This document shows positions 15,923 to 34,690 of a stretch of DNA of 64,000 nt, piece after piece. Below the pieces are notes generated by a model. That model made no database searches. It was given only the letters and a program-made list of their open reading frames with translations, and had not been told where the DNA came from. Both the position numbers and the translations under genes were made by a program. The first letter of the stretch is position 1. Each line of letters starts with the position of its first letter. This DNA is from an uncultured delta proteobacterium (GTDB taxonomy: Bacteria > Myxococcota_A > Polyangia > Polyangiales > Houyiibacteriaceae): the NCBI GenBank assembly GCA_963699755.1, contig CAVOVB010000003.1, positions 448,001-512,000 of the forward strand, read 5' to 3'.

Positions 15923-15963
15923 CAGTTTGAACTTAGATTACCAGTACTTGCAGACACGTCGCC

Positions 15964-16752: not shown

Positions 16753-16928
16753 CTAGCACGGTCTGGAGATCGCTCATGAGCATGAGCGCTGAAAGGGCTC
16801 TACAGGCGAGCACGATCGACGCCTCCTGCTCTCGGCGGGGCTCGAGTGTGTTCCGTGCGCATGCGGCCAGCAGCGTGTGATACGGGGTGCAAGTGGTAGG
16901 CTCTGCCCGGATCGGGTAAACATACCGA

Positions 16929-17450: not shown

Positions 17451-17473
17451 AGTTTTCGCGCGATTCCAGTCCC

Positions 17474-17583
17474 TCAACGCCCCGCCTCGAGCGCCTCCCA
17501 ATCTCTAAGAAACCCCACAATCGAGTTCCAACTTGGCGCACTTGGGGTCACCGCCACCACAAAGCCCGGCTTCGGCCGGGCTT
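17474..17583. repeat. Junction R1 (peptide arm + tRNA-Glu core 17543-17552 + hairpin)
   Basis: Minus strand 17551-17474 encodes VTPSAPSWNSIVGFLRDWEALEAGR*; hairpin AAGCCCGGC-TTCG-GCCGGGCTT. Confidence 0.9.
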
Positions 17584-17672
17584 CTTCGGCCCGCGAATTG
17601 CGCAGAGGCTATTACGGGCGTGGGGACTGATGCCGGTAGCTTCTACCCGCCGCACGGCATATCTTCTTAGGG

Positions 17673-18083
17673 ATGGTCGTTGGTTTCCTTCGAGTGACCA
17701 CTCTCGCCTTAGTGCTGATGCTCTTTGCGTGTTCCGATGCGGACAGCGGCCCAAACGTCATGATGAGGATTGAGACGATCACGGGGGATTCGCTGGTCGC
17801 GGAGTATCGAGTCGCCTGTCAAGGAAGCGGCTCCGAATTCCTGGAGGATGGAACATTCGAGCCCTCGGGTATGGGCTCGTCGGCGGATATCATCGGATTT
17901 GGTCAGGTCGTTGACACCATCCTTTGGACCGCCTCGATCACTGCGCCGCCTGGTGAGTGTGCCGTCAGCTATAGGTTGCGGGACTCCAAGGCAGAAGTGA
18001 TCTGCGTAGGTTTCCAGCAGTTCGTTGTCCCAGCGGATGCGCCCCAAGAGGTCTACTACCTCATGGTCTGCGAGCTGTTCTGA
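17673..18083 (+). CDS. Putative lipoprotein (unit 1 cargo)
   Basis: Lipobox LFAC after a hydrophobic stretch; sole gene between R1 and R2. Confidence 0.75.
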   Translation: MVVGFLRVTTLALVLMLFACSDADSGPNVMMRIETITGDSLVAEYRVACQGSGSEFLEDGTFEPSGMGSSADIIGFGQVVDTILWTASITAPPGECAVSYRLRDSKAEVICVGFQQFVVPADAPQEVYYLMVCELF

Positions 18084-18240
18084 AGCTGTGTGTACGAACT
18101 ACGCGAGCCGATGATGTGGCGAGCGCCATCCGGGCATTTGTCCGGGCACACGGCGGCTCCCCAATCGACGGAGTGGAGATCGATTGGTCGCGTTGAGGCG
18201 AGAGGTGGTCGGAGGCGACAACCCGAGACGGCTCAGGCGC

Positions 18241-18355
18241 TCACGCCGCTATCGTCCGCAGCCGCTCCCACTCTTCGATGAAGCCGGAAAATTCGTACCA
18301 ACTTGGCGTACTTGGGGTCACCGCCACCACAAAGCCCGGCTTCGGCCGGGCTTTT
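18241..18355. repeat. Junction R2 (core 18313-18322)
   Basis: Minus strand encodes VTPSTPSWYEFSGFIEEWERLRTIAA*; right arm identical to R1 for ~30 bp (GCCACCACAAAGCCCGGCTTCGGCCGGGCTT). Confidence 0.9.
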
Positions 18356-18382
18356 ATCATGACTCGCCTATTGGTCCTCGCG

Positions 18383-18682
18383 TCAGCGACCCAGCCAATA
18401 ACCAGGGCGCCGCTTCGCGTGCGCCACTGCAATGATTTCGACGGCTGCCGCGTCGATGTCGAAAAACACGACATATGGGAAGCGTTTCAGAAAGTACTTT
18501 CGATATGGACGATCAGCGCGCCAGACCGGACACGCTTCGGGGTTCTCGAGGATGGATTCGAAAGCTCTATCCACGACCGCGACGAACTCGATACCGAGAC
18601 CGCGACGCTTTTGCTCGTACCATATCGCTGCCGACTGAAGCTCGGCTTCAGCTTCCGGCGATACGCGAAGCGTTCGCTTCAT
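18383..18682 (-). CDS. RelE/ParE-family toxin
   Basis: EAEAELQSAAIWYE..GLGIEF, RFPYVVFF, IIAVAHAKRRPGYW signature. Confidence 0.9.
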   Translation of the reverse strand: MKRTLRVSPEAEAELQSAAIWYEQKRRGLGIEFVAVVDRAFESILENPEACPVWRADRPYRKYFLKRFPYVVFFDIDAAAVEIIAVAHAKRRPGYWLGR

Positions 18683-18912
18683 CGCGCAAGCTGGCCGAGA
18701 ACGCGCGCGCGGACTTCACTCCACTCGGGGGCAGGTTCGTCCCTGCCACGAGCGGCTTCCACGCGACGATCGAGCTCCGCCAGCCAGGCAGACTCCCAGT
18801 CGCCATCCGGCGGCCCGTCGACGCTCGCGATGAGCTCTGCGGCGAGCGCCAGCCGCTCGTCCTCGGGCAGGGCGCTGGCTGCTTCGAGAAGCTTTTTGGC
18901 CGCGTCGGTCAT
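18679..18912 (-). CDS. Addiction-module antitoxin (TIGR02574-like)
   Basis: ALPEDERLALAAELIASVD..AWLAELDRR..WSEVRAR; ATGA overlap with the toxin gene. Confidence 0.88.
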   Translation of the reverse strand: MTDAAKKLLEAASALPEDERLALAAELIASVDGPPDGDWESAWLAELDRRVEAARGRDEPAPEWSEVRARVLGQLAR

Positions 18913-19002
18913 CGACGAGATTGTAGCACGGGCGAGATCATGATGTGGTTTCGGCCGGAACCGCCGAAAGTTTCGTATTTTTGAGCCTCGCCGCCGACAA
19001 GA

Positions 19003-19114
19003 TCACGCCGCAAGCCTCCGGAGCCGCTCCCACTCTTCAACGAAAGCGAAGAATTCGTTCCAACTTCGCGTACTTGGGGTCACCGCCATCAGAAGGCCCG
19101 GCTTCGGCCGGGCT
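19003..19114. repeat. Junction R3 (core 19075-19084)
   Basis: Minus strand encodes VTPSTRSWNEFFAFVEEWERLRRLAA*; hairpin GCCCGGC-TTCG-GCCGGGC. Confidence 0.9.
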
Positions 19115-19200
19115 GCTTCTATCGCCGGGCGCAGCCGGGCAGAGCGATTTCATCTTCGAATACCGGGGTGTCGCAGTTGCGAACATGGATCATCTGGGGG

Positions 19201-19824
19201 TTATGGCGCGGACGCGGCGGGAGCACGCTTGCGCAAGCGCGGAAAGAAGGCGCCAGTGTTTCTGCGGTAGGCGCTGTAGGCGTCGCCGAAATGCTCGAGC
19301 ATCATCTTTTCCTCAGAGCGGCTGTAGATCACGATCGCCGGAATCACGTACGCGATCGTGATCACCGCGGCCGCCGAGCTCGCGAAGCCAATCGCCACGC
19401 TTACCCAGATCATGATGGCGAGTAAGTAGATCGGGTGCCGGACGTGGGCGTAGGGACCGTGGGTGATGATCTCCTGGTCGGAAAGGACGTAATGCCCCAC
19501 TGCCACAGTCGGGAACGCGCGAATCGACCACCACAGCAGGGCTAAAGCGCCGAGGGCGAACGCCGTGCCCGCAAAGACTCGAGCAAGCTCCAGAGTCGTC
19601 GGGTCCGCGGGATTCTCGTGTCCGATCCACAGATACAGTGTCACCGCGAACAGCAGCGCCGGCTCTGGATACGCAACGAAATCGGTCCAAGCCGCAGGCG
19701 TCGTGACGGCGCGCTTTCGATAGGAAAGCGTACGACGAAAGAAAACATAGTGGACAACCACCGCGCGCCCCAGGGCGATCAGGGCGATGATGCCGAGGCC
19801 GACGGGATAGAGATCGAGTTGCAT
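19201..19824 (-). CDS. Isoprenylcysteine carboxylmethyltransferase (ICMT/Ste14) family membrane protein
   Basis: Several TM helices, GPYAHVRHPIY, EEKMMLEHFGDAYSAY. Confidence 0.88.
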   Translation of the reverse strand: MQLDLYPVGLGIIALIALGRAVVVHYVFFRRTLSYRKRAVTTPAAWTDFVAYPEPALLFAVTLYLWIGHENPADPTTLELARVFAGTAFALGALALLWWSIRAFPTVAVGHYVLSDQEIITHGPYAHVRHPIYLLAIMIWVSVAIGFASSAAAVITIAYVIPAIVIYSRSEEKMMLEHFGDAYSAYRRNTGAFFPRLRKRAPAASAP

Positions 19825-19835
19825 GGCTACCTCCG

Positions 19836-19892
19836 AAACATGAGGAAATGCTCATGTTTGACAAAACATGAGGGAGGCCTCATGTTTGTCAA
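19836..19892. promoter_or_regulatory. Tandem palindromic TetR operators overlapping divergent promoters
   Basis: AAACATGAG-N6-CTCATGTTT occurs twice (19836-19859, 19864-19887); TTGACA on + at 19858-19863 and on - at 19892-19887. Confidence 0.8.
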
Positions 19893-19908
19893 GGCATAGA
19901 CAACCTCG

Positions 19909-20532
19909 ATGGCAAAAAACGAAGAAATTCGGGCGTTCCCACAGCAGGAGCGCAGCCACAAGCGGTACCTGTCGATCCTGAATGCGGCGGCGGAGGTATT
20001 TGCGGAGCGCGGCGTGGAAGCTGCGACCATGCAGGAGATCGCCGAGCGGGCCGACACTTCAATAGGGTCGGTATACCGGTTCTTCGCCGATAAGCAGGCG
20101 CTCTTTCAGGCGGTTCTCGACCGAGTGGCCGCCAACGAGCGCGAGCTGCTCGAGTCGGTCTTCGCTGACGCTTTTGATGAGTCGATTCCGACTCTGATCG
20201 ATCGCGTCATCGACGTGTACGCGGCATTCAACGCGCAAGAGCCTGGCTGGTATGCGATTTGGCGTCACCTCAACCTCCACGCGGCTTCGGACAAGACCGG
20301 CCACACGCCTCGCGATGAGCAGTTGAGGCGCTTGCTGATGTTGGTCGGCTACTACGCGCCCCATTTGGACGAAGCACGGCGCCAGGTGGTCGCGACGACG
20401 GTCCTCGCGTTGCTGACCAGCATGCTGGCCGCCGCAGAGCGTCAGCCGTCGCCGATGCGAGAGCGCCTGCTCGAAGAAACCAAACGCGTTCTGAGACTGT
20501 ACGCGCAGGATTATCTCGCTGGAGGCACCTAG
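19909..20532 (+). CDS. TetR/AcrR family regulator
   Basis: ILNAAAEVFAERG..TMQEIAERA..SIGSVYRFFADK HTH. Confidence 0.93.
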   Translation: MAKNEEIRAFPQQERSHKRYLSILNAAAEVFAERGVEAATMQEIAERADTSIGSVYRFFADKQALFQAVLDRVAANERELLESVFADAFDESIPTLIDRVIDVYAAFNAQEPGWYAIWRHLNLHAASDKTGHTPRDEQLRRLLMLVGYYAPHLDEARRQVVATTVLALLTSMLAAAERQPSPMRERLLEETKRVLRLYAQDYLAGGT

Positions 20533-20786
20533 ATGATGACCAGGGCGTTCTGCCAGTCTGGCCACAGCAGAGCGAGCGCTCGCGTAAACCAACACACCGA
20601 CCACCAAGAGGATCCCATTCCCCACCGAGAACCAGGCGAAGATCAGCGCGTTGCGTTGTCTTCTTGGTGAGGCAGTCACCATTCAGTTCCCGAATTGCGC
20701 AAATCCAAGCTCTCGTGTCGACTTTCTCGAGAACGAAAGAGCGCATCTGAGCTTGTTGTGAGCGGCGGGATTTCGTTCACGGACTC

Positions 20787-20899
20787 TCACACTACTAGCC
20801 TCTGGAACCCCCTCCACTCGGTGAGGAACCCCACAAAGGAGTTCCAACTCCGCGTCGTTCGGGTCACTCAGAAAGCCCGGTCTTTGGACCGGGCTTTCT
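20787..20899. repeat. Junction R4 (variant core TCGGGTCACT 20859-20868)
   Basis: Minus strand encodes VTRTTRSWNSFVGFLTEWRGFQRLVV*; perfect hairpin AGAAAGCCCGGTC-TTTG-GACCGGGCTTTCT. Confidence 0.85.
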
Positions 20900-21065
20900 T
20901 CGTTGTCTTTTGGTACATCCGACCCGCCCACCCCCGCCCGTAATCCTCCCTGCGCGGTGGTCGCTTCGCTCCACCTTGCCGGCGCATTCGCGCCGGGCTT
21001 CGCCCTTCGGGCTCGCGCTGCCGGGGCGCTTGCCGTCTTCGCCCTGCCGGTGGTGCGGGCGGTTT

Positions 21066-21854
21066 CTAGGGACTTCCCCTCGCGCCAACGTGCTCGGTAG
21101 GCTCGAAGTCATCGATGCGGATGTAGTGCAATCGTCCCGGTCCCACCACGCGGCCGTCTGGCTCTGTCCTCTCTTGTTCGCACATGAGCTCGATGTCTCC
21201 GCCTCCTTGCTCCTGGCGGAAGAAGGACCTGCACGGCACATCCAGCGGAAGGCTCTCGCCGTCTCGAATCACGTAGTCATTACAGCTCGTGCTCGTGTAG
21301 TGAGAGAAGGGCGGAACCTCCAACACTCCCCAGGTCTCATGCGCCCGGGTGCCATCCGCCGCCTCCCACTCGCGAGTCCTAGAGCACTCCAGCGGGTCGC
21401 CGAACAAGGAGAGCTCATCGAAGGATCGAGCCACTGGAACGAGCAACTCTTTGATCAAGCCCCCGGCTTCCACGTGAACCTCGAACTCACTGGGAGCATT
21501 TGGATGGAGGTTCATGAAGTTGTAGCAACGGAGACCATCCAACTCGCCTCCCGCCTCGATACGCCAAGGGGCAGTCACTGTAACCTCACCAGCGACATCG
21601 GTGAGAATCAGGCTCGGGTCATAGTCGGCCCAAGATGCTCGGAGGTTCGCAAGCGCCTCGTCGCCGACAATTGGCGAGGCGTCCAGGTTCGGCGAGGAGA
21701 TGCGAACACTTGTGAGAGCACCATCACCTGCCGTGACGCAGACCATCGTTTCCGTCGCCTCGACGACGACCTCGGGCGGTTTCACATCTTCTCCGCAAGC
21801 AACCAACGAAATGAGGACGAAGGCGAGCACGTTGCTCCGTCGGGGCCGGGCCAT
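21066..21854 (-). CDS. Putative lipoprotein (unit 4 cargo)
   Basis: MARPRRSNVLAFVLISLVAC lipobox. Confidence 0.75.
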   Translation of the reverse strand: MARPRRSNVLAFVLISLVACGEDVKPPEVVVEATETMVCVTAGDGALTSVRISSPNLDASPIVGDEALANLRASWADYDPSLILTDVAGEVTVTAPWRIEAGGELDGLRCYNFMNLHPNAPSEFEVHVEAGGLIKELLVPVARSFDELSLFGDPLECSRTREWEAADGTRAHETWGVLEVPPFSHYTSTSCNDYVIRDGESLPLDVPCRSFFRQEQGGGDIELMCEQERTEPDGRVVGPGRLHYIRIDDFEPTEHVGARGSP

Positions 21855-21969
21855 CGCGAGAGAGTACCATTCGGAGAGTCTGGCCGTCGAGCGTCGCTGA
21901 GACGACTGGAAATCAGCCTGGCTGGCCAATGCAGAACGCCCCCACCACGACCGGCAAGACCTGGGTCCC

Positions 21970-22147
21970 TTAACCGGCGGCTCGCAATGCCGCGTGCCTC
22001 GCGCGCCGGCGAAGCCCCTCCCAATCTGTGAGAAACCGAACAACCGCGTTCCAACTTCGCGTACTTGGGGTCACCAAAAAAACAAGGGATTGTGATTCCG
22101 GTCGGAGTCCCTTGGTGCGTTGTGGCAAATATGTGTCACCCGCGTGC
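21970..22147. repeat. Junction R5 (core 22066-22075)
   Basis: Minus strand encodes VTPSTRSWNAVVRFLTDWEGLRRRARHAALRAAG*; ~70 bp right arm shared with R7. Confidence 0.9.
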
Positions 22148-22150
22148 CGC

Positions 22151-22618
22151 TCACCCATCAGGACCCGCGACCTCTGGCGATTGACCCACCGAGCCTTCCA
22201 GCGTCTCTTTGACGCTGATGAGCGCCAACCCGAACTCCCGTGCATTCCGCCTCGCGGCGATGTGCTCCGCAAGCTTTCCCAGCACGGGAATGGGGACGTT
22301 GTACTTGACCTCGAGCGTCAGTACCGAGCCTTCCTCGTGGGGTTCGACCCCGTATGCAAACGTGCTCTCAATCATGCCGATGGTCTGATGCACCGCGCAT
22401 TTGCCCGGAACGTGCTCGACGACCGTAGCCTCTCCATGAAGGAACAGGCCTGCCATCTTGTAGGTCCACGTCTGCTGCTGGCCGGCGCCGCTCCCGATCA
22501 CATCGGCCACTTCGACCATCCCTGGCAGCCATTCGACCAAGTTCATCGGGTCGTCCACGTACGCAAACACTCGATCCGTGGGCGCATGGATCACGATACT
22601 GTTCTTCCAGGAGATCAT
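22151..22618 (-). CDS. SRPBCC/polyketide cyclase family protein
   Basis: SIVIHAPTDRVFAYVDDPMNLVEW N-terminal signature. Confidence 0.85.
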   Translation of the reverse strand: MISWKNSIVIHAPTDRVFAYVDDPMNLVEWLPGMVEVADVIGSGAGQQQTWTYKMAGLFLHGEATVVEHVPGKCAVHQTIGMIESTFAYGVEPHEEGSVLTLEVKYNVPIPVLGKLAEHIAARRNAREFGLALISVKETLEGSVGQSPEVAGPDG

Positions 22619-22984
22619 GTCAGCCGACTCCCGTTCTAGGGGGTCGCCACCGTATGCAACCACCGGATTCTGTTCATGTCTATACGCAATTCTTTATTCG
22701 TTCGAGGCTTCGGCAGGCCTAGCAGTGCATACGAGAGGTTTCGGGGAAGGATCTAGAAGACAACTCCGATTCTCCGCAATTGGGTCACGCGCCCGGACGT
22801 TCCGTGCGTGTTGTAGCAAAGGCCGGAGTGACGAGGGCCGAAGACCCGAGCTCCCGCTGCCACCATCTTCGTGTTCCTCCGGCGCGCTCCGAGGTGATCA
22901 CCCGAAGGCCGTGGATAGACGTCCGGCACGCGGAGCAGGTGGCCAGCCAAGACGCGCCTGTGAAGTGCGGATAGATTCACTCGA

Positions 22985-23431
22985 TTAGTCTAGCTCAGCA
23001 AGTTTCGCGGCGAGCTGCTTCTTTGCCCAACGTTCTGCCTCGATAGGCTTGGAGAAAAGTTGGTAGGGAAACTTCGGTGGCGAGAGCCAAGTCACGGCGG
23101 TCACGACGCCGCGCAGCCATGGGCTCGGTACGATCAACGCGGAGCCCGCATACCACGGAACGCTGAGTTCTCCGAAACGCTTGAGGTGCTCGGCTAACTC
23201 TTTGCGTTGGATGGCCGGCGCCTTGGTGACGTTGGAGAGATCAATGACCCAGGCCATCGGGTAGCGCGCGCGAATCGCCCAGTCTTCGCGTGCCCGAAGA
23301 GATGCCTTAAGCTCTTCGTTGGTGGCTTCCGAAGGAAAGGTCCATCGGTAGATCGGCATGAGGTCGTTCGAGAACCACGGATGGTCGATCTGGATCTGCT
23401 CCGCAGCAGGCTGACCCTTAGCCCTGTCCAT
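22985..23431 (-). CDS. Hypothetical protein (STAS/SEC14-like, myxobacterial type)
   Basis: 'WVIDLS..AIQRK..ALIVPSPWLRGVVTAVTWL.P..YQLF..EAERWA' pattern. Confidence 0.7.
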   Translation of the reverse strand: MDRAKGQPAAEQIQIDHPWFSNDLMPIYRWTFPSEATNEELKASLRAREDWAIRARYPMAWVIDLSNVTKAPAIQRKELAEHLKRFGELSVPWYAGSALIVPSPWLRGVVTAVTWLSPPKFPYQLFSKPIEAERWAKKQLAAKLAELD

Positions 23432-23495
23432 TCGGACAGGATAGCGCTTAAAACCTCACCCTTCCAAAGTGAAGTGGAACTCGACGCCCATCCTC

Positions 23496-23906
23496 TCAAT
23501 CGGGGCGACGAACGCCCAGCTGGGTCTCGACGCGGTGTTGTCGGTGCAATCGGCGTTCGGCCACGCGAGTCACCCGCTCCAGCACATCGCCTTTGCTGGA
23601 GTCGATCGCCAGCATGAGTCTGGCTGTCGCGACGGCGCGAGCGTCAAAGCCCCTCGCCGAATACAGGTACGCTGCGCGCTCATATGCGCGAAGGGCCTCC
23701 GCCTCGTGTCCGATCCGACGCAACAAGTCCCCCTTGCGGTGCGGCCACCGGGGCTCCTCCGGCTTTCGTTTTTCGATGAGCTCGTAGATGTCGAGCGCTT
23801 CGATCATCCCTCCCTGCTCGAGCGCTCGGTTGAGCTCGGCACAAAGATCTATGGTTTTGCTTTCGCTTCTACGGCTCGTTTTGTTGGGGATCAAATGCTT
23901 CCACAT
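23496..23906 (-). CDS. Short TPR-like protein
   Basis: ALDIYELIE..P..PRW....GDLLRRIG...EAL.AY..AA..Y...GF..RA.A helical repeat. Confidence 0.65.
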   Translation of the reverse strand: MWKHLIPNKTSRRSESKTIDLCAELNRALEQGGMIEALDIYELIEKRKPEEPRWPHRKGDLLRRIGHEAEALRAYERAAYLYSARGFDARAVATARLMLAIDSSKGDVLERVTRVAERRLHRQHRVETQLGVRRPD

Positions 23907-24051
23907 GGGACCGACACAAACAGGGGGATCTTCGAGAGAACACCCTTTCGGGACTAGCGTCCACAAGTAATTCTTCCCTCGGGCTCGGCGCGTCCCGTCT
24001 CACGAGGCGCAAAACACTGCCTGAGTAGCTGAACAGACCTTCAACGTTCAC

Positions 24052-25395
24052 CTAGCCGCGTTTCCAAAGCGCTCCAACTCGCTTGAGAAGACCAGGACGA
24101 CTCGGTCCGATCGTTTCACGCGATTCCAGGTTTTCCGCGATGTCGAGTGTACGCCTCGCACTTTCAGTCATGCCCGCTGCGCCGTACACCCGCGCGAGAG
24201 TGCGCCGGAGCTGGGCATCATCGGGGGCGTTTGCGACGGCCTGCTCGGCGCGGCGACGAGCGTGTTTGAGATCGCCTCCGGATGCGAGCAGTGCTTCGGC
24301 GACCCCATGGGCGGCGCGCGCGTCATCAGGTTGTCCGAGCAAGACCTTTTCCCAGGTCTTCGCCGCAGCTTCCCACATGCCGAGGTTCTCCTCATAGGCG
24401 GCCTGCGCCCGGAACGTTGGCGCAAGGCTCCTGTGCATTTCTTGGCTCACCGTTGCCAAGGCGTTCTCGAGGACACTGCAATCCGAGACGATCGAGCTCG
24501 CCAGGCGGAGCGCATTGGTCGCGCCGACCAAGTTCTCCGCCTCGCGTTCGATGATGGCGCTGCGCACCAGTCCTTCGGCACGCACCCGGCTGGCTCCGCG
24601 GGGCGCGCACTCGCGAAGTGCCGTGACGAGGTAATATTCGGCAATCTTTTCTTCTGGGAGAGCCTTTGGGGCGCTGAGGTCCTCTCCCATGAGAGCGCGC
24701 TTCGATGTGCGTGATGCGGGCGCGGAGGCCTGGGCAGGTGGCGGAACCAGCGAGGCTCGACGGACGCCCTCGGAAAGCGCGTCCTCGATCGCATGCGTCT
24801 CTTGTCGATAGAGCAGGTACTCATCGTAGCTCTGTTTGCGCTCCGGGGTGCGAAGCACCTCATAGGCCGCGGATACGCGTTCGCGAACGCGCCGCGTCCC
24901 GAGTCGCGCCGCCATCCGCGCGGCCAACGTGCCCTCCTCGAGCGCTTGTGCCCGATCGTGACCGCGCTCGATGTCGGCTGGGCTGCAGTCCGCATAGAGA
25001 CCGAGGAGTTGATAGTGCGTGAGTCGTTCGAAGCGCTCGAGGAGCCGGGGGGCGGGGGCACGCATCGAGACGAGGTTCCGTTTCGTGCTCATGCGTGTTC
25101 CAGACAGGCGGCGCCCGGGCTCTTCGGAAGCAGCCGTCGAGTCCACTGGCACCTCGTGGTCCCAATGGATCAAGCCCATCGCGGTCAGGCGGTTGAGGAT
25201 CTCCGTGACCGTCCAGGGGTCGAGACCGCAGACATCGACGATCTCGTGGGCCAGCATGACTCCATCGATCCGCGACAGAACGTAGGCGTCCCGCGAGTCG
25301 AGCGACATGGACCGGAGCTTTTCGGATGCCTGATGTACAAGTCGAGGCGCAGGCGGATGCCGAGGCGCGGCGCTGCTTTTGGTCGCTACCTTCAT
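24052..25395 (-). CDS. J-domain-like + TPR protein
   Basis: THYQLLGL...VSAAYEVLRTPERKQSYD J-like helices without HPD; C-terminal TPRs. Confidence 0.75.
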   Translation of the reverse strand: MKVATKSSAAPRHPPAPRLVHQASEKLRSMSLDSRDAYVLSRIDGVMLAHEIVDVCGLDPWTVTEILNRLTAMGLIHWDHEVPVDSTAASEEPGRRLSGTRMSTKRNLVSMRAPAPRLLERFERLTHYQLLGLYADCSPADIERGHDRAQALEEGTLAARMAARLGTRRVRERVSAAYEVLRTPERKQSYDEYLLYRQETHAIEDALSEGVRRASLVPPPAQASAPASRTSKRALMGEDLSAPKALPEEKIAEYYLVTALRECAPRGASRVRAEGLVRSAIIEREAENLVGATNALRLASSIVSDCSVLENALATVSQEMHRSLAPTFRAQAAYEENLGMWEAAAKTWEKVLLGQPDDARAAHGVAEALLASGGDLKHARRRAEQAVANAPDDAQLRRTLARVYGAAGMTESARRTLDIAENLESRETIGPSRPGLLKRVGALWKRG

Positions 25396-25483
25396 TGGGC
25401 GCGAGATTACGAAAACCCGGGCTGGAAGGCCCAAAAAATGGTCGACTTGGTCTTTTCAGTCAGCTAGTTCGACCATAACGACA

Positions 25484-26860: not shown

Positions 26861-27011
26861 GACCTCGCTGAGACGGACCTGAGGGCCCGGTTTATTCAGG
26901 AAGGGTTAATTCGTCTCTCAGGGCCTCAGTTGCCACTCGCTCTTGCAGCACCCGGGGGATCCGGAGTGCCCCGACGCGCCCGGTGGGACGTAGGCCCTGC
27001 CGAGTGTTTTC

Positions 27012-27410
27012 GTGTTTGCCGCCGCAGTGCTGACGGGCGTCCTGATTTGGGGCCTTCGTTTGCTCTCGGACGTGCTGAATCAGCCAACAGGCGCCGACGC
27101 GAAGTCCAAAGTAGTCAGCAGGATGCTCGCTGAAAAACCGATCAAGCAGCAAGGCCCGGCAACGTCGCTAGTGCCGAGTTTCAGCAGGGTCACGGGAGCC
27201 CCGGGTGCCACGGTCATCGGGGCATTCTTCGTGGGAGTGAGCTATTGGGCGTTGTTCGGCCTCTTCTTTGGAAAGAACCTTGGCAACCTCGACAAAGTTG
27301 GGGCGCTTGTCGTTTCGGGCACCGCCTTCTTCGCGCGTTACGCGTTCAATCAGCTACGCGCGGTCTTTAGCCGACCCTCGCGAGCACGGTGCGTGTGGTG
27401 TCGCTGCTAG
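27012..27410 (+). CDS. Small membrane hypothetical protein
   Basis: Three hydrophobic segments; fills the gap between two minus-strand genes. Confidence 0.4.
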   Translation: MFAAAVLTGVLIWGLRLLSDVLNQPTGADAKSKVVSRMLAEKPIKQQGPATSLVPSFSRVTGAPGATVIGAFFVGVSYWALFGLFFGKNLGNLDKVGALVVSGTAFFARYAFNQLRAVFSRPSRARCVWCRC

Positions 27411-28108
27411 TTCCCGAGCACCGACCAGAAAGCCGTTCCGACCCAGATTCGAAAGGCAAAGTCGACATCTGAGGTGCCGTTTCCGATGCCGATGGCGGGG
27501 CCGAGCTCGAACAGAAAAAAAGGTGCCACCTTCGGGGCGGCGTTGATCTCGACACCCATGCGAACCATGAGTGGAATGATCCCCCAAGGGTCCACGTCTC
27601 TTGCGAACATCAGGGTAAACGGAATCGTCGCTCCGGTGACCACGCTGACCCGGTCATGCACGTCGATCGAAACGGGAATCGCAAGCTCGGCGCGCACGCC
27701 ACCCATGACCCGCCGATCAAACCGAAAACCGACAGGAGGCACTCGGCCACGGTCACGGTCGCTACCGCCGACCATGGCACCCGGCGTGAACCGAATCCCA
27801 ACATCGGTTGTGGCCTTGGCATGCTTCCTGTTGTGGATATGCCAGCGGAGCGGAGCGTTGAGAGCAAGACCGACGCTCACATCCGAGAACGCGCCTGACC
27901 AATCCCCGTACAACAGCTCGGCGCCGAGTGCCCAGTCCAGCTTGCCTTGCCCCTTGTTCCACCATTCGTAGAACAGGCTCGGCCAACCGACCCCCGTGTT
28001 GTGCACCATGTCGGACTTCAGCCGCTTCCCTCCAATTGTGGACTGCGGACCCGCAAGTGCGGTGCTCGACATGGCAAGCACCAATACAAAAACGGCAACG
28101 GCTCTCAT
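27407..28108 (-). CDS. Putative outer-membrane beta-barrel protein
   Basis: GGAGG RBS, signal peptide (STALA), alternating hydrophobic strands, aromatic-rich C-terminus. Confidence 0.75.
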   Translation of the reverse strand: MRAVAVFVLVLAMSSTALAGPQSTIGGKRLKSDMVHNTGVGWPSLFYEWWNKGQGKLDWALGAELLYGDWSGAFSDVSVGLALNAPLRWHIHNRKHAKATTDVGIRFTPGAMVGGSDRDRGRVPPVGFRFDRRVMGGVRAELAIPVSIDVHDRVSVVTGATIPFTLMFARDVDPWGIIPLMVRMGVEINAAPKVAPFFLFELGPAIGIGNGTSDVDFAFRIWVGTAFWSVLGN

Positions 28109-28372
28109 TGCACCTCCCTCTCGGCCTCCGGTGACCAGACTCTAAGATCCGGGAAGCTCGAGAGCAAAAGTATCGCGAGGGAGTGCCACCCAAAGTGCCA
28201 CTTCAGGGAGATGAAAGAGATGGTAGGCAACGCTCCTTAGCTCCGTCGGCATCCGAATCGCGTGGTTCTAGTCCCTATGTCGATTTTCTCGCGGACGAAA
28301 GAGGGCGTTTGAACGCACTGTGAGCGGTAGGATTTGTTCCCCCAACGATCTCACGCCACGAGCGTCTGGAGC

Positions 28373-28711
28373 CTGTCGTTCCTCAAGACGTCGTCCAGCG
28401 CGAATTTGGGCTGCGATGATCGCGAAGGTGACCCAGCGGACAGAGCTCGGACCCCTACGTACGCTGCCGATGGCTGGACATGCGGGAGTCGAGCGCGGCA
28501 TCGGCCTCAGCCCGGGGCAGCACGCGCAGCCGAGCATCGACTGCCCTCGCCGAAGCTCATCATGCGGCCATCCGAAGCCTGTCCCACTCTTCAATGAAAG
28601 GGGAAAATCGGTTCCAACTTCGCATCGTTGGGGTCACCAAGAAAAAAAGGGATTCTGATTCCGATCGGAGTCCCTTGGTGCGGTGCGGCAAATACGTGTC
28701 ACCCGCTTGCA
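28373..28711. repeat. Junction R7 (core 28629-28638)
   Basis: Minus strand 28637-28560 encodes VTPTMRSWNRFSPFIEEWDRLRMAA*; left arm like R6, right arm like R5 (hairpin AAGGGATTCTGAT-TCCG-ATCGGAGTCCCTT). Confidence 0.9.
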
Positions 28712-28779
28712 CGCTAGAGCTCGCACCTGTTCAGCTTCGCAACACTTTCGGCGTCCTTCTCCATGGCCTCAACCGCGCA

Positions 28780-29273
28780 TCATTGAAGGTCCCCTTCGGC
28801 AAACATCAAGTGCGCCTGGCAAGCGAGCTTCGAGCCGATGAATGCTGTGTCGCCTGGTAAGAGAACGCAGCCCTGGCTGTGCACCCCACAGCCTCTGGCA
28901 AATCCGGCCGATTCATCCTGCGCCTCGACCAATGTCTTGTTCGGTAGGTCATTGAAGTTCACGCCCGTCACTTCCTCGATCGCGTCGATATCGCCTGCTG
29001 CGCTGCCGCAGCGCTGAACGCGTCGATGGCCGAGAGGTAGATATTCAGCTTGCCACCATACGCGGCATTGAGGCTCGGCCTGCTGAGACTCGTCGCCGTC
29101 GACAGGTCGTCCAACGAGGTCGCGGCATAATCCTGTTTGCGGAAGGACGCCGGCCCCCCAAAGAATGTTGAACAGACGACCGACCGAGTGTGGGGGAGCA
29201 GAAGCGCCCGCAGCCTCGCGGCACTGTCGACGCGTTGATCAGATCTTCTGGAGGTGTACCCGGTGCAGACCAC
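28780..29273 (-). pseudogene. Degraded TetR-family regulator
   Basis: FRKQDYAATSLDDLSTATSLSRPSLNAAYGGK..IYL resembles a TetR HTH; premature stop at 28968 and a scrambled N-terminus. Boundaries approximate. Confidence 0.65.
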
Positions 29274-29433
29274 CCCCCTTCCTTGTGTTGAAATCGTTTC
29301 GCGTGACGCGACAGATTTGCGTTTGCTCCCGCGCTCTTACATGGTCCTTCGTTCGCCGCAGCCGGAATGCCGACCCGTTTCGACGTGGTACATCTCTTGC
29401 AAGCTGCGAGACGCTCGCCCCCCAAGGTGGAGA

Positions 29434-29952
29434 ATGGATCTACACATGCGCATCCTATCGATCGGGTTCTTCGCGTGCTCGTTGTTCGTCGTGTTCCCGG
29501 GAGCTCGTTCGCTGGCGCAGGACTCGAGCGCCGCGCCGCAAGTCCAAGCTGCCCCTGAGCCTCCGCTGTGCGTTAGCGGTCGGCGTGGCTATCGCCCCTA
29601 CGACTACTACGACCTCGAAGAGGCGGAGCAGCGCAGTCGAATCGTCCGGAATGCGCTGATCGGTACCAGTGCGGCGCTTGCCACCGGCATCGTTCTCGCG
29701 GGGATCGGATCGTCGCAATGCAATCACGAGACCCAGTCGGACGGAAGCGACAGTTGGTCGTGCAACACTGCAGGAAACGTCTTGTGGGGGGTCGGCGGGG
29801 CCTTCATCGGACTCGGCACGATCGGGGCGCTCACGACGGGCATCATGCTCGGCGTCCGCAACAAGCAAAAGCGCGAGATCGAGTGGGACCTTCGACGCCG
29901 TTACCGCACCCGTATTCGTTGGGACGAGAGATCGGGCCAGTTCGTGTTCTAG
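29434..29952 (+). CDS. Secreted/membrane hypothetical protein
   Basis: GGAG RBS, signal peptide, two Gly-rich TM segments flanking a Cys pair, C-terminal Phe. Confidence 0.7.
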   Translation: MDLHMRILSIGFFACSLFVVFPGARSLAQDSSAAPQVQAAPEPPLCVSGRRGYRPYDYYDLEEAEQRSRIVRNALIGTSAALATGIVLAGIGSSQCNHETQSDGSDSWSCNTAGNVLWGVGGAFIGLGTIGALTTGIMLGVRNKQKREIEWDLRRRYRTRIRWDERSGQFVF

Positions 29953-29999
29953 CGGAGTCGACCTCATTCAGCGTTCACCTATTGGGAGACCGGGACAAC

Positions 30000-31007
30000 A
30001 TGAACTACTCGGCAGCAGTCAGCGAGACCTGGCGCCATCACGAGCTTGGCAACGCCAGACATGACTACGTGGGCCTGGTGCGGTATGCGACACTTGCCGC
30101 GTCCAGCCACAACACGCAGCCGTGGAAGTTCAAGCTCGAGCCGCGCAGGATTATGATTCGCCCGGACCTCTCACGACGCTGTCCGGAGGTCGATCCGGAT
30201 GATCATCACCTGTATGGAAGCCTGGGTTGTGCCGCCGAGAATTTGTTGCTGGCCGCCCAAGCCGGCGGCCTAGCAGGCCACTATTCCTACCATGCGTCCA
30301 CATCAAGTGTGCAAGTGGACTTCGAAGAGGCGACCCCCTTCCGCTCAGCCTTCTTCGAGGCCATCCCAAGGCGCCAGTGCAGTCGGGCCGACTACGACGG
30401 AAATTCGCTCTCCAATGACCGGCTCCGCCTGCTGGAGGAGGCCGGGCGCGGCGATGGAGTCTCGATCCTGCTTCTCACAGACAGCGCACGGAAAGAGCAG
30501 GTTGCCGAGTATGTCGCAGAGGGCAACACGGCCCAGTTCGGCGATCCTCAATGGGCCGAAGAGATGAGGAAGTGGATCCGTTTCAACGCTCGCAGCGCTG
30601 TGCGTACGGGGGACGGTCTGTACGGCGCGGTGCTGGGTATCCCCAACGTGCCCCGGTGGCTCGGGAAGCTCTTGATGCCCGTTGCGGTGTCGGCAGAGCG
30701 CCAGAACCAAAAGGACCTCAGACACATCCGAAGCTCCGCGGCAATCGCGGTGTTGTTCTCCGAACGCGACGACCAAGAGCACTGGATCGAGGCGGGGCGA
30801 AGCTACGAACGCCTTGCGCTCCAGGCCGCCGCGTTGGATCTGCGCACCGCCTTCATCAACCAGCCCGTCGAAGTTCCCGTTCTCCGCGCGCAGTTTGCCA
30901 GTTTTCTCGGCATCGCAAGTCGACGGCCGGACCTCGTGGTCCGGATCGGTCGAGGTCCTGAGATGCCGCGATCGTTGCGGCGGCCTGTGGAGCAAGTTCT
31001 CGTTTGA
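30000..31007 (+). CDS. Acg-family nitroreductase-like FMN-binding protein
   Basis: ATLAASSHNTQPWKF, DPDDHHLYGSLGCAAENL, WIEAGRSYERLAL, RSLRRPV. Confidence 0.88.
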   Translation: MNYSAAVSETWRHHELGNARHDYVGLVRYATLAASSHNTQPWKFKLEPRRIMIRPDLSRRCPEVDPDDHHLYGSLGCAAENLLLAAQAGGLAGHYSYHASTSSVQVDFEEATPFRSAFFEAIPRRQCSRADYDGNSLSNDRLRLLEEAGRGDGVSILLLTDSARKEQVAEYVAEGNTAQFGDPQWAEEMRKWIRFNARSAVRTGDGLYGAVLGIPNVPRWLGKLLMPVAVSAERQNQKDLRHIRSSAAIAVLFSERDDQEHWIEAGRSYERLALQAAALDLRTAFINQPVEVPVLRAQFASFLGIASRRPDLVVRIGRGPEMPRSLRRPVEQVLV

Positions 31008-31028
31008 GTCCGTTCGAAAGGAGTCCTG

Positions 31029-31550
31029 ATGGCACAGCAGGTCGACGGCGAGTTCGCGGGCCACTTCCTTGAACGTCTGTACGCGGCCGTGAATGCGCAC
31101 GACGCCAACGCCGTGGCCGCGCTCTGCTCAGAAGGCATCGTGTGGGAGGACCCAGCCGCGCCCGAAGCGCTGCACGGACGCGAGGCCGTGTGCCGGTTCC
31201 ACCGCGACATCATGTTCCGAGCAATTCCAGACGTGAAAATCGAGCTCGTCGACGGGCCGTACCTCGCTCTCAACGGCACGAGCGTCGCGGTTCGGTCGCG
31301 CATCAGTGGAACGATGACCGGGCCGCTGACACCGCCAGGCTTTGCGCCAACCGGGGGAGCCATCGAGTTCGAGACGGCGGAGTTCTCGCAGTTCGATGGC
31401 GACTTGCTCGCCCGCCACGCGGTGGTGCTAGACATGCTCGGACTGGCGCGCCAGATCCACGCGGTGCCCAAAGCGGGTAGCTTCGCCGATCGGTTCGGCG
31501 TCTGGCTCCAGCACATCGCCGCGCGCCGAGCACGAAGGCATCGGGCGTGA
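31029..31550 (+). CDS. SnoaL-like/ester cyclase (NTF2 fold) protein
   Basis: AVNAHDA..ALCSEGIVWEDP..GREAV, GTMTGPL..APTG, DMLGLARQ. Confidence 0.85.
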   Translation: MAQQVDGEFAGHFLERLYAAVNAHDANAVAALCSEGIVWEDPAAPEALHGREAVCRFHRDIMFRAIPDVKIELVDGPYLALNGTSVAVRSRISGTMTGPLTPPGFAPTGGAIEFETAEFSQFDGDLLARHAVVLDMLGLARQIHAVPKAGSFADRFGVWLQHIAARRARRHRA

Positions 31551-31604
31551 CGCCGGATCGAGCGACTCAGCTCGGAGAGCCTTCACGCCAAGGGATGAAT
31601 CACG

Positions 31605-32576
31605 ATGCACGCAAGACACTTCTTATGGATTGGGATCGCGGTCGCGGGGGCTTTACTGGCGGGCGGCGCCATCTATGGAGCGTTTTCAGCCGATCTTTCT
31701 GCCGAGCGCGCACGGGTGAACCAAGGAAGTGAGCTTTTTCAGAGCCGCTTTGGCGCGATGGAATACGCCGTGGCCGGAGACAAAGAAGGTCCGCCAGTCC
31801 TCATGGTCCACGGCACCGGTGGCGGCTTCGACCAGGGGCTCGGGGCGTCTGAACCCTTAATCGCTGCGGGTTATCGGATCATCGCACCGTCCCGGTTCGG
31901 CTATCTGCGCTCTGCGTTCCCGCAGGATCCGTCTTCGGAACATCAGGCGGATGCCATCGTAGATCTGATGGATCACCTCAGCATCGATCGCGCTCCGGTG
32001 ATCGGCGTTTCGGCCGGGGCGCTTCCGGCGATTCAGTTTGCGATCCGTCACCCAAACCGCTGTTCGGCGCTTGTGGCGGTTGTTCCCGCCACCTACGTGC
32101 CCGGCCGCGCGCCCGTCCGGCCGAACGCGCTGGGCGCGGCGATCATGGAATACGGGCTGCAATCGGATTTCCTGTTCTGGGCGGGCCTGCAGCTCGCCGA
32201 GGACACGATGATCCGCACACTCTTGGCTACGGACCCGGCGCTTGTGCATCAGGCCGCCTCCGCTGAGCAGGACCGGGCACGCTCCATTCTGCACGACATC
32301 CTGCCGGTAAGTATGCGAAGCAAGGGCCTCCTGAACGATGCCCAACTGGCGGGAACCCCGGCGCCGATGGATCTGGCGGCGATCACCGTGCCCACGCTGG
32401 CGATTTCGCTGCAGGACGACCGGTTCGGCACCTATTCCGCTGCCCGCCATATCGCGGCGTCCGTGACTGGCGCGAAGTTTGTGAGCTACCCAGTTGGCGG
32501 CCACGTCTTCGTCGGCCACGGACCGGAGCTCTTTGAGGAGATCAGCGCATTCCTGTCCGGGGTTCAGGGCAGTTGA
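31605..32576 (+). CDS. Alpha/beta hydrolase
   Basis: HGTGGGFDQG, APSRFGY, nucleophile elbow GVSAG, GGH. Confidence 0.9.
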   Translation: MHARHFLWIGIAVAGALLAGGAIYGAFSADLSAERARVNQGSELFQSRFGAMEYAVAGDKEGPPVLMVHGTGGGFDQGLGASEPLIAAGYRIIAPSRFGYLRSAFPQDPSSEHQADAIVDLMDHLSIDRAPVIGVSAGALPAIQFAIRHPNRCSALVAVVPATYVPGRAPVRPNALGAAIMEYGLQSDFLFWAGLQLAEDTMIRTLLATDPALVHQAASAEQDRARSILHDILPVSMRSKGLLNDAQLAGTPAPMDLAAITVPTLAISLQDDRFGTYSAARHIAASVTGAKFVSYPVGGHVFVGHGPELFEEISAFLSGVQGS

Positions 32577-32612
32577 GTTGGGTCAGGCTCCTGTGGAATT
32601 ATTCGGCCGCTC

Positions 32613-33363
32613 ATGACACCGAGACCCTCACTCGCCGAGCTTTGGGAGTCGACCACGCCGAGTCGCCACACATTCGACCCCAACGGCCTCGCCGGCTTGC
32701 CGGTGGCTGCGCAGCGTTTCCTGCGTCATGCCATTTCCCCCGGGGAGCCCTCTGGCGACGGCCGTGCGGCTCGACATGCACGGCGAGATCAAGCTCAGGC
32801 GATGGCTGCCGTTCAAGGCAGAAGAGATCATCCACCGGGAGCGCGGCATGATTTGGACGGCTACCGTTCGGAGCACCGGCTTGCTGTCCATCCACGGCTA
32901 CGACCGCTTCGTCGACGGCCAGGGCGCGATGTGTTGGAAGCTCCTGAAGATGATTCAAGTCATGCGTGCCTCTGGTCCTGACATCACTCGATCGGCGGCG
33001 GGACGATTCGCAGCGGAGCTGATCTGGTTGCCTTCCGCGCTCGCTCGCAGCGGCTTGTCTTGGTCTGACGAAGGATCCAACGAGGCGGTGGCGCGTATCA
33101 GCCTCCGACCTGAGGACATTGAGCTTCACTTGCACGTCGATGCCACGGGCGAACTTCAACGCGTCCAGCTCTCTAGGTGGGGCAATCCCGACGAAGCAGA
33201 GTATCGCCACGTCAGCTTTGGGGCCATCGTCGAGGAGCGGGGTACCTTCTCAGGTGTTACCATTCCGACCCGGATGCGGGTCGGCTGGTACTTCGGGACG
33301 GAACGGTTCGAGTCGGAGGGCGAGTTCTTCCGAGTCACGATTGACCACGCGACCTGGCGATAG
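32613..33363 (+). pseudogene. DUF6544-like protein with frameshift
   Basis: N-terminus (LPVAAQRFLRHAI) is in one frame and the remainder (LATAVRLDMHGEIKL...GEFFRVTI) in another; switch at TTTCCCCCGGGG near 32734-32745. Confidence 0.7.
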
Positions 33364-33496
33364 CGCACCCCTGAATCCTCACACGACATGCACTCGACCT
33401 GCTTGCGCTCATTCAGCTTCCGAATTGCATGGTTCAACCGCCCCGGCTTCACCGGAGGCTCTATCTGCTCGGCGACCTGCCACCAAGCTATATCGC

Positions 33497-34465
33497 TCAG
33501 ATCGTGATGACGACCTTGCCTTTGGAGTGCCCGGCGCCCACGTATCTGATGGCTTCCGCCGTTTCGCTCAGCGGATAGCGTCGATCGATCGTGGTTGCGA
33601 CCTGGCCGGCTTCGGTGAGCTCGATGATGGTGAGCAGGTCCTGCCGGTTGGGTTTCACGGTCAACATTCCGATGCTCTTGCTGCTTGTGCCGGAGACCCA
33701 TCCTCCAAAGAGCAGCGTCCGCGCGATCTGAGGGACGGACCCTCCGGCCGCCAGATAAGTTCCCCCGTCGCTCAGCGCGCGCTTCCAGGTGTACACCGAG
33801 CGGACTCCCACCACGTCGAGAATCAGGTCGTAACGCCCTCCGCGCTGGGCGAAATCCTCCTGCGTGTAGTCGACGACGTGGTCGGCACCCAGCGCGCGCA
33901 TCCAGTCGAGCTTCTCCGTCTTGTCCACGCCCGTCACTTCCGCTCCGAGTGACTTGGCGAGCTGCACCGCGAAGGAGCCTGCTCCGCCCCCCGCACCGTT
34001 GATGAGAACCTTCTGACCGGACTTCAGCCGCCCTTTGTCGCGGAGCGCCTGAACGGCGATGAAACCCGATTCCGGCAAGCTCGCAGCTTCCTCGAACGTC
34101 AGCCACGCAGGCTTGCGGACCAGCGGTGCGCGCTGCGGTACGCAAACGTACTCGGCGAAGGCGCCCAAACCACACTCGAGAATGTCTCCGAAGACCTCGT
34201 CGTCCATTTCAAACTCCGTGACCTTCCGGCCGACCGCTTCAATTCGTCCTGCAAGGTTGCAACCGAGGATCCGAACCTTGGGTCTCAGGAGCCCAAAATC
34301 GACGAGCCGGACCCAGGCCGGCTTGCCTCGCAGGATTTCCGTGTCGCCTTTGTTGACCGAGGCCGCACGCACCCTCACCAACACTTCATCCTCTGCTGGT
34401 GTCGGTCTCGGGATTTCCTCCACCCGTAGAACGTCGGGCGATCCATACTCGTCGCGGACAACACG
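33497..34465 (-). CDS. NAD(P)-dependent alcohol dehydrogenase/quinone reductase (MDR family), start codon apparently eroded
   Basis: VVRDEYGSPDVL, VLVRVRAASVN, INGAGGGAGSFAVQLAK, LGADHVVDY, KGKVVI. No in-frame start found directly before VVRDEYG. Confidence 0.85.
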   Translation of the reverse strand, partial: RVVRDEYGSPDVLRVEEIPRPTPAEDEVLVRVRAASVNKGDTEILRGKPAWVRLVDFGLLRPKVRILGCNLAGRIEAVGRKVTEFEMDDEVFGDILECGLGAFAEYVCVPQRAPLVRKPAWLTFEEAASLPESGFIAVQALRDKGRLKSGQKVLINGAGGGAGSFAVQLAKSLGAEVTGVDKTEKLDWMRALGADHVVDYTQEDFAQRGGRYDLILDVVGVRSVYTWKRALSDGGTYLAAGGSVPQIARTLLFGGWVSGTSSKSIGMLTVKPNRQDLLTIIELTEAGQVATTIDRRYPLSETAEAIRYVGAGHSKGKVVITI

Positions 34466-34564
34466 CTCACCCGCGACGCGCTTCAGATGACATTCATTCC
34501 AGCGGCCGATGCCGCCGTAGCAATGGCACGCAGCCTCATCGAACTGAAGGTCGTGTAGCGCCCT

Positions 34565-34690
34565 TCAGGCTGTCGCCCTCACTCGACGAAGTGCGTTACA
34601 GTCACGCAGGAGGACAACCGAGGTATTCCGACTTCGCATCCTTGGGGTCACCAGGATCAGAGTCCCCGCCTTGGCCGAGCTTCTTCTTTG
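34565..34690. repeat. Junction R8, degenerate (core 34643-34652)
   Basis: Minus strand encodes VTPRMRSRNTSVVLLRDCNALRRVRATA* (both Trp lost); eroded hairpin + T-run. Confidence 0.75.

Follow-up and report, generated by a model that had tools for sequence, protein, structure and literature searches.

The window analyzed here is a 64,000-nucleotide (nt) stretch of DNA from an uncultured delta proteobacterium of the family Houyiibacteriaceae, order Polyangiales (assembly GCA_963699755.1, contig CAVOVB010000003.1, positions 448,001 to 512,000), and it carries eight direct repeats between 17.5 and 34.7 kb, all in a single orientation, downstream of a tRNA-Glu gene. The eight repeats are probably the attachment-site (att) junctions of tandem, small, mostly integrase-less cassettes that have accreted at the 3′ end of tRNA-Glu(CUC), with the conserved arm of each repeat kept mainly as DNA. 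An earlier reading of the letters alone, hereafter the original prediction, had noticed in every repeat a short antisense open reading frame (ORF), the micro-ORF, and had argued that its peptide is under protein-level selection, either as the detachable C-terminal tail of a recombinase or as a separately translated micropeptide. It had also linked the repeats, as recombination junctions, to the 3′ end of tRNA-Glu and to a recombinase, and this part is borne out by the results below.

The array is anchored by a pair of plus-strand tRNA genes, tRNA-Gln(CUG) at 15742 to 15813, called by both ARAGORN and the Rfam tRNA model, and tRNA-Glu(CUC) at 15847 to 15922, called by ARAGORN. The last 10 to 11 nt of the latter, TGGGGTCACCA (about 15912 to 15922), are the core that is repeated at all junctions, and the core TGGGGTCACC is common to tRNA-Glu and eight of eight repeats. 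All junctions share one layout: a left arm of about 85 nt, the 10- to 11-nt core TGGGGTCACC(A), which is identical to the last bases of the tRNA, and a GC-rich hairpin with which the following cassette begins. A 26-nt motif, TTCCAACTTCGCGTNNTTGGGGTCAC, searched for with at most 3 mismatches, was found eight times in the window, always on the plus strand, against 0.00 expected from 100 shuffles.

The micro-ORFs are read on the minus strand from a GTG inside the core, and the GTG start is in each case the right-hand coordinate of the repeat (17551, 18321, 19083, 20867, 22074, 25742, 28637, and 34651). In R1 (17474 to 17551) the micro-ORF has 25 codons and a stop, with the core at 17542 to 17552 and the GC-rich hairpin at about 17559 to 17587 on the plus strand. 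R2 (18241 to 18321), R3 (19003 to 19083), and R4 (20787 to 20867) each have 26 codons and a stop; the first two adjoin type A hairpins at about 18329 to 18357 and 19091 to 19119, and R4 adjoins a hairpin at 20870 to 20899. R5 (21970 to 22074), with a 34-codon ORF, and R7 (28560 to 28637), with a 25-codon micro-ORF, have type B right flanks, from 22082 to about 22147 and from 28645 to about 28710, respectively. R6 (25662 to 25742) has a 26-codon micro-ORF, and the likeness of its arm to that of R7 extends to about 25484. R8 (34565 to 34651), the last copy in the window, has a 28-codon ORF and the most diverged arm.

The eight peptides are identical, letter for letter, to those listed in the original prediction, and its description of them was accurate. 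Residues W8, F14, and W18 are kept in seven of the eight (R8 departs), the arms align without a gap over 94 nt, and six of the eight frames are closed at codon 26 or 27, the exceptions being R5 (codon 35) and R8 (codon 29). To call the DNA divergent was also fair, with a mean pairwise difference of 0.32 to 0.40 per codon position among the eight.

A ninth copy, with an R6/R7-type arm and a type B flank, lies at the very end of another contig (C11) of the same genome (G000), at 93730 to 93787; this end is probably an assembly break inside a further array or a collapsed repeat. The genome is listed with 9% contamination. By arm, the copies fall into three groups (R6, R7, and the C11 copy; R2 and R3; R1, R4, and R5), and by right flank R1 to R3 form one group and R5, R7, and the C11 copy another. 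Arms and right flanks assort independently: R6 and R7 have the same arm and different flanks, and R5, R7, and the C11 copy have the same flank, with R5 differing in its arm. The largest arm subfamily (25484 to 25742 and 28373 to 28637 in the window, 45 copies in relatives) shows conservation of about 60 to 70% per column that continues for about 250 nt past the micro-ORF, in a region with short palindromes (CTCGAC...GTCGAG and CGCGATCATCGCG) and no open frame kept.

Comparisons with a related genome and with metagenome contigs show what happens at the cores. The block from 15908 to 19085, which comprises three cassettes, has 99.75% identity over 3178 nt to the related genome G026, and both of its ends are cores. 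It adjoins the tRNA in the window and another arm in G026, and its right edge, 19085, is R3. A 954-nt metagenome contig from one run (X1) has 0 mismatches to the window and joins 17539 to 18310, which is the exact loss of the R1-R2 cassette, with 44 letters at the joint common to both sides; a second run (X2) retains this cassette. On other metagenome contigs an arm is joined via the core to the right flank of a different junction; one such joint links 25733 to 18313 over 10 letters common to both. The breakpoints are in the core whether genomes or metagenome contigs are compared. Units are gained, lost, and reordered at the repeats, and the array is polymorphic within natural populations.

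The DNA motif was found in 23 of 36 other genomes of the genus, with up to 20 copies per genome, and in none of 24 genomes from other genera of the order. A hidden Markov model (HMM) of the peptide, built from 69 copies and run on six-frame translations of 301 genomes, matched 39 of 54 other genomes of the genus and none of 33 genomes from the family's other genera, with one weak match in 213 others. In five relatives (G011, G023, G026, G036, and G014) the arrays adjoin the same tRNA-Gln/Glu pair, with a nitrite/sulfite reductase gene on the far side of the pair. In one genome without a match to the peptide model the tRNA is followed directly by a type A hairpin (G066) and in another by a type B hairpin (G003); therefore, each cassette opens with a sequence that elsewhere lies just downstream of the tRNA. 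In a further genome (G008) the tRNA is followed by the 3′ flank of the integrase. An inserted cassette would then have to supply the terminator for the tRNA operon. At the far end of the array, PPK2 and the gene next to it had no match in the 24 loci compared, which leaves the distal boundary undefined by synteny.

The recombinase to which the repeats are tied lies in the first cassette. A minus-strand ORF of 262 amino acids (aa) at 15964 to 16752 matches PF00589 (Phage_integrase; E = 1.9e-11), reads toward the tRNA, and stops 42 nt short of the tRNA end. Its sequence matches residues 93 to 354 of a 354-aa metagenomic integrase (P0001) with 96% identity and lacks the first 92. With in-frame stops upstream and an alignment that begins at residue 93, the ORF is therefore a 5′-truncated remnant. 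The segment 16753 to 16928, which stands in place of the integrase 5′ end and the expected excisionase gene, had no match to either. The integrase of G026 has the same truncation point at residue 93, and therefore the truncated integrase travels as a cassette. This Glu-type integrase is truncated in G000 and G026, and in G010 and G031 it is reduced to a C-terminal fragment.

Full-length relatives of the enzyme were found elsewhere. The search returned 243 integrase relatives, and the 120 listed are mostly of about 354 to 360 aa; the family is common in metagenome-assembled genomes labelled by their sources Polyangiales, Myxococcota, or Deltaproteobacteria. Among 30 paralogue loci from the genus, 18 have a tRNA-Leu(UAA), tRNA-Pro(UGG), tRNA-Met, or tRNA-Glu gene adjoining the integrase. 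On a metagenome contig (L080), an ORF with an excisionase-type HTH_17 domain is followed by a complete integrase of 354 aa (97% identical) and, after a further 42 nt, by the core and an arm with a 39-codon open frame. L080 could be an autonomous element in its attP form or else a tandem junction, and in both cases it ties the arm to the enzyme. By its domain and its neighbors, the enzyme family associated with the array is a tyrosine integrase that targets tRNA 3′ ends. A paralogous full-length integrase lies in the same genome (contig C3, 17994 to 19049), with a 376-aa open frame 61% identical to P0001; an approximately 85-nt sequence after this gene recurs twice within 29 kb (about 17868, 40180, and 46766), and no tRNA gene is called beside it. 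The C3 locus (about 17.9 to 46.8 kb) was considered as a source of an analogue of the micro-ORF, which was ruled out, as its three repeats keep the integrase-side flank and not the arm.

The integrase evidence bears on the first proposal of the original prediction, that the peptide is a swappable C-terminal tail of a recombinase whose gene, like those of Mx8 and SSV1, would contain attP; a large serine recombinase was named as a possibility. The gene does read toward the core and ends 42 nt short of it, and 11 of 12 full-length relatives end in PPHVN(V/L/A)(R/V)ST followed by a short variable tail, with one (P0044) diverging after PPH. However, the integrase has its own stop before the core, at a distance of 42 nt in L080 as in the window, and the integrase match in G026 ends 43 nt ahead of the next arm match. 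The frames differ as well, that of the micro-ORF being closed by a TAA five codons upstream of the GTG. The motif VTPxxxSWN is carried by none of the 12 full-length relatives, and a word-based search of predicted proteins found none with the motif. Moreover, the domain is of the tyrosine-recombinase type, and a Pfam scan of the 36 ORFs of 13247 to 38243 found no resolvase or serine-recombinase domain. We regard a recombinase tail as scarcely credible.

Another arrangement to which the array could belong is a canonical chromosomal integron or a cluster of attC sites lacking an integron integrase (CALIN), which would make the repeats attC sites that IntI recombines in folded single-stranded form. 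Small cassettes in one orientation, mostly of unknown function and including a toxin-antitoxin pair, would fit such an array, as would a tyrosine recombinase gene at one end that is transcribed away from it. Three results speak against it. A search of the whole genome with TIGR02249 gave a best score of 88.7 bits against a cut-off of 265; no conserved imperfect-palindrome fold was found in the arms by RNAalifold, DNA energy parameters not being used; and the sites copy a tRNA 3′ end, which is where this integrase family sits. A canonical integron is accordingly very unlikely.

Beyond the core, the arm too can be related to the tRNA. Between the anticodon loop and the CCA end it can be aligned to tRNA-Glu once two insertions, of 37 and 5 nt, are allowed for; together they make 42 nt or 14 codons' length (14 × 3). 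In a global alignment, the consensus of arm subfamily 2 scores 39.9 against tRNA-Glu, compared with 16.6 ± 3.9 for 300 shuffles (maximum, 33.6; z = 6.0), and subfamily 1 reaches z = 3.9. The matched blocks are CTCACGCCG (anticodon loop and stem), CGAGTTCCAACTTCGC versus CGAGTTCGAACCTCGC (T arm), and TGGGGTCACC. Judged from this alignment, the arm is a diverged copy of the 3′ part of the tRNA with 42 extra bases. The landmarks of the micro-ORF can be placed on it: the GTG belongs to the acceptor/CCA end, SWN corresponds to the T-loop (AGTTGGAAC versus GGTTCGAAC), and the TGA falls in the anticodon-loop motif. The true tRNA-Glu, read antisense, gives a 12-codon ORF, VTPARFELALPA*, in the same register as the arms and as the original prediction had it. 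The micro-ORFs have their start, SWN, stop, and register in common because the arm is a tRNA relic with a 14 × 3-nt insertion.

Both invariant Trp codons lie within two similar 9-mers, AGTTGGAAC and GAGTGGGAC, 30 bp apart, which would suit a role as arm-type binding sites. No conserved RNA fold was found on either strand (RNAalifold, 44 arms per strand), with only 4 to 5 invariant pairs. We propose that integrase supplied in trans from rare integrase-bearing elements would recombine core with core, by which cassettes would be inserted, deleted, and shuffled. The arm would be conserved chiefly as DNA, acting as a P arm with putative binding sites.

Some results weigh against this account, concerning both the machinery and the arm. 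The loss of the R1-R2 cassette could be the product of homologous recombination over the 44-nt identity rather than of integrase action. No intact Glu-type integrase was found in the 55 genomes of the genus that were searched. A terminator scan with the consensus flagged the R4 hairpin alone, one of the eight. In G023, one contig (C14, 1 to 60000; L035 to L037) holds a second array of about ten arms with no tRNA gene within the 60 kb compared; therefore, the arrays are not confined to the tRNA-Glu locus. Last, there is a coding-like signal in the arms. We collected 152 arm copies, 124 of them unique over 90 nt, and used for the ratio of nonsynonymous to synonymous polymorphism (pN/pS) the 112 that are at least 60% like the consensus (12 were dropped); the copies are mutually related, and all coding statistics given here overstate their independence. 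The stop comes after 25 to 26 codons in 88 of 124 copies. In the micro-ORF frame, pN/pS is 0.67 over codons 2 to 25 and 0.63 over codons 10 to 25, the lowest of the six frames. BLOSUM conservativeness, compared with 300 column shuffles, gives z = 2.9 in this frame, 1.9 in the antisense frame that shares its wobble positions, and negative values in the rest. On a minimum spanning tree, the changes in codons 10 to 25 number 218, 200, and 344 at codon positions 1, 2, and 3; such a third-position share was reached by 93 of 20,000 permutations that respect site heterogeneity (682 of 20,000 for codons 1 to 25). In several codons a middle T is invariant and positions 1 and 3 vary.

These numbers qualify the claim of protein-level selection in the original prediction. 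The eight repeats do not by themselves demonstrate it, their mean pairwise differences being 0.34/0.32/0.40 by codon position, but with 112 to 124 copies a modest coding-like signal does appear in the predicted frame. Fourier analysis also places period 3 as the second strongest term. At the same time, the other frames span pN/pS values of 0.70 to 1.28, and the wobble-sharing antisense frame, at 0.77 and 0.70 for the two codon ranges, comes close to the micro-ORF frame. The modest three-base periodicity in the 14 inserted codons leaves translation possible without establishing it, and we rate it as a minority prospect.

The behavior of the wobble-sharing frame raises the question of a constraint on the plus strand, which could be an ORF in that frame that crosses the core (MKAENWFQLRVVGVT...) or a tRNA-like 3′ element of the cargo transcripts. 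Besides its pN/pS, this frame is stop-free in 109 to 110 of 112 copies, and on the RNA side RNAalifold pairs TCCCA with TGGGG in an acceptor-stem-like manner, and a T-loop-like GGTTCCAAC is present. However, the frame has no defined end and runs into the variable hairpins, and its BLOSUM z is the lower of the two. The predicted stem never varies, the T-arm pairing is lost, and neither ARAGORN nor Rfam calls a tRNA there. A plus-strand constraint of either kind is most improbable.

A stronger competitor is the second proposal of the original prediction, a peptide translated on its own. In this reading about 25 aa would form an acidic amphipathic helix with FxxxWxxL on one face, and the peptide would have arisen from the antisense of the tRNA-derived att arm. 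The start codon would lie in the crossover core, and recombination would swap what stands upstream of it; the micro-ORF might be cotranscribed behind xis-int, as the layout of L080 would allow, and silent behind a hairpin, and the peptide could be an accessory factor of recombination or of the excision state. In its favor are the low pN/pS, the BLOSUM z, and the third-position excess given above. The start is GTG in 112 of 124 copies, only 7 of 124 have earlier stops, and 8 of 124 lack a stop inside 40 codons. The alignment stays gapless across deeply diverged subfamilies (QFSAFIEEW versus SVVGFLTDW), and RNA structure does not explain the conservation.

Other features of the same copies argue the opposite. 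A pN/pS near 0.65 is weak for a functional protein, and the wobble-sharing frame is nearly as good. Inside the largest subfamily (20 copies) there is no periodicity, the changes being 23, 29, and 35, a distribution reached by 5609 of 20,000 permutations. Where the frame is closed after 25 to 26 codons, TGA is used in 86 of 88 copies, as expected of a conserved DNA motif, and the start, SWN, and stop are all inherited from the tRNA-derived sequence. A Shine-Dalgarno-like motif precedes the frame in only 7 of 112 copies, the GTG sits immediately behind the hairpin, and no promoter-like site was found in the arms.

Searches of protein collections point the same way. No predicted protein with the motif was found among those of 27 to 88 aa or of 89 to 2000 aa in a collection of 5.8 billion clusters, although the search was word based and gives weak evidence of absence; the query was a natural 50-aa ORF of the window that contains the peptide, and none of the 3 candidates in the 89- to 2000-aa range scored. 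Against Pfam, four of the peptides had no family below E = 0.18, which is chance level. An in-frame start is available at codon −2 in 49 of 112 copies. One RNA-library run covers parts of the array with metatranscriptome contigs that carry no strand information and may contain DNA. A predicted complex of the 39-aa arm ORF of L080 with an integrase alignment had a score below the mark and counts neither way. Taken together, we hold a translated peptide to be a real but lesser possibility. The fuller version, in which antisense sequence of a tRNA fragment has given rise to a micro-gene that recombination rewires, on behind xis-int and off behind a hairpin, so that the peptide reports or controls the recombination state, appears somewhat more doubtful still.

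Two other origins of the micro-ORF were tried and rejected. In some type A flanks the frame resembles an integrase N terminus (MAVTP..RSW versus MAVRKLARSW), but the codon families differ (AGA TCA TGG versus CGA AGT TGG) and nothing further matches. A longer ancestral gene was also considered; from an arm-like copy an open frame extends over 93 aa at most, and this extension is unconserved; one read-through of 113 codons is a weak match that is not an arm.

The cargo of the array, annotated from the Pfam scan, fills eight cassettes of 0.76 to 6 kb, each bounded by cores, from 15923 to 34651. Next to the integrase remnant, the first cassette has a plus-strand lipoprotein-like ORF at 16929 to 17450, and a second one lies at 17673 to 18083 on the same strand; in both, the signal peptide and lipobox were read by eye. 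A ParE toxin and its antitoxin are encoded on the minus strand at 18383 to 18912. The other products with Pfam matches are a PEMT-type methyltransferase (minus strand) divergent from a TetR protein (plus strand); SRPBCC and TPR proteins (minus strand); nitroreductase-like, SnoaL, alpha/beta hydrolase, and DUF6920 proteins (plus strand); and a zinc alcohol dehydrogenase (minus strand). For the orientation of the cassette genes, a gene caller based on GC content at third codon positions was tried, missed too many known genes, and was not used.

Some details of the cargo deserve mention in their own right. The ParE/antitoxin cassette (18255 to 19112) is the most widely shared cassette seen: at least seven other genomes have homologues of it in their arrays (82 to 88% identical over 600 to 870 nt), and G026 has a second copy. 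In the 84-nt gap between the PEMT-type methyltransferase (minus strand) and TetR (plus strand) genes lie two tandem 28-nt units (19836 to 19891), both of them inverted repeats (AAACATGAG...CTCATGTTT), which resemble a pair of TetR operators. At 26086 to 26345, at least nine tandem 21-nt units lie inside a minus-strand ORF (26123 to 26860) and give its protein a 7-residue repeat; the match of this ORF to the model of the CDI lipoprotein BcpO is weak, at 29.9 bits where the cut-off is 80.

Among known systems, tycheposons of Prochlorococcus are described as tyrosine-recombinase elements at tRNA genes that leave partial tRNA copies on both sides, and their islands as the outcome of repeated integration at one site, which pushes older elements inward and leaves fragmented integrases and scattered partial tRNAs, with cargo behaving as "plug-in" cassettes (bioRxiv 10.1101/2020.12.28.424599). 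The likeness extends to a tyrosine integrase at the tRNA 3′ end, accretion, integrase remnants, partial tRNA copies, and cassette cargo. The units of our array, in contrast, are mostly of 0.76 to 3 kb and without integrase or replication genes. Its arm is long and conserved (about 85 nt), with only 10 to 11 nt still identical to the tRNA, a 42-nt insertion, and an open antisense frame, and its host is a sediment lineage, with integrase relatives labelled Polyangiales or Myxococcota. On these features, tycheposon-type tRNA islands are the closest match, and accretion as in cis-mobilizable elements (CIMEs) is also close.

CIMEs, known from tandem accretion by site-specific recombination in the integrative and conjugative element (ICE) family of ICESt1/ICESt3, are flanked by att sites, lack recombination genes, and depend on an integrase-bearing relative with the same att site in tandem. 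They differ from the array in being few and large, beside a resident ICE, and without a long array, whereas here up to about 20 small cassettes occur per genome, and a search of 55 genus genomes found no intact cognate integrase. With integrons and CALINs the array shares small, promiscuous cassettes in one orientation that bring their own sites, toxin-antitoxin cargo, and an order and content that vary between relatives. Here, however, there is no IntI above the cut-off and no attC-type fold, the sites go back to a tRNA 3′ end, and a phage-type integrase that has an arm-binding-type N terminus and an excisionase-like partner is the likely enzyme.

In lambda sib retroregulation it is sequence across the att site from int, and with ORF-11 in attI1 of class 1 integrons a short ORF within the recombination site, whose effect depends on what recombination places adjacent. 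This is the logic that a translated micropeptide would need. Both differ from the array: sib is an RNA hairpin and the arm has no conserved hairpin, and ORF-11 lies upstream of the cassette genes on the same strand, whereas in at least three cassettes here the arm-proximal gene is on the opposite strand. In myxophage Mx8 (intP/attP) and in SSV1 (int), attP lies inside the integrase gene. As there, the integrase gene of the array adjoins the att core and is transcribed toward it; unlike there, the core is 42 nt outside the integrase ORF, and integration therefore leaves the protein unchanged.

If it is true that the arm frame is translated, it would be a rare case of de novo gene birth from antisense tRNA, with the gene start in a crossover site; if it is not, the case warns that a conserved peptide can be mimicked by a relic tRNA that carries an insertion in frame. 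That tandem islands occur at tRNA genes was already known. Compared with them, the present array is integron-like and built from phage-integrase parts, and what sets it apart are its many small integrase-less cassettes, the long tRNA-derived arm, the in-frame 42-nt insertion, and the open antisense frame. Through a tyrosine integrase and its HTH_17 partner, the case connects an array of this kind, which occurs across one genus of sediment bacteria, with a concrete enzyme family.

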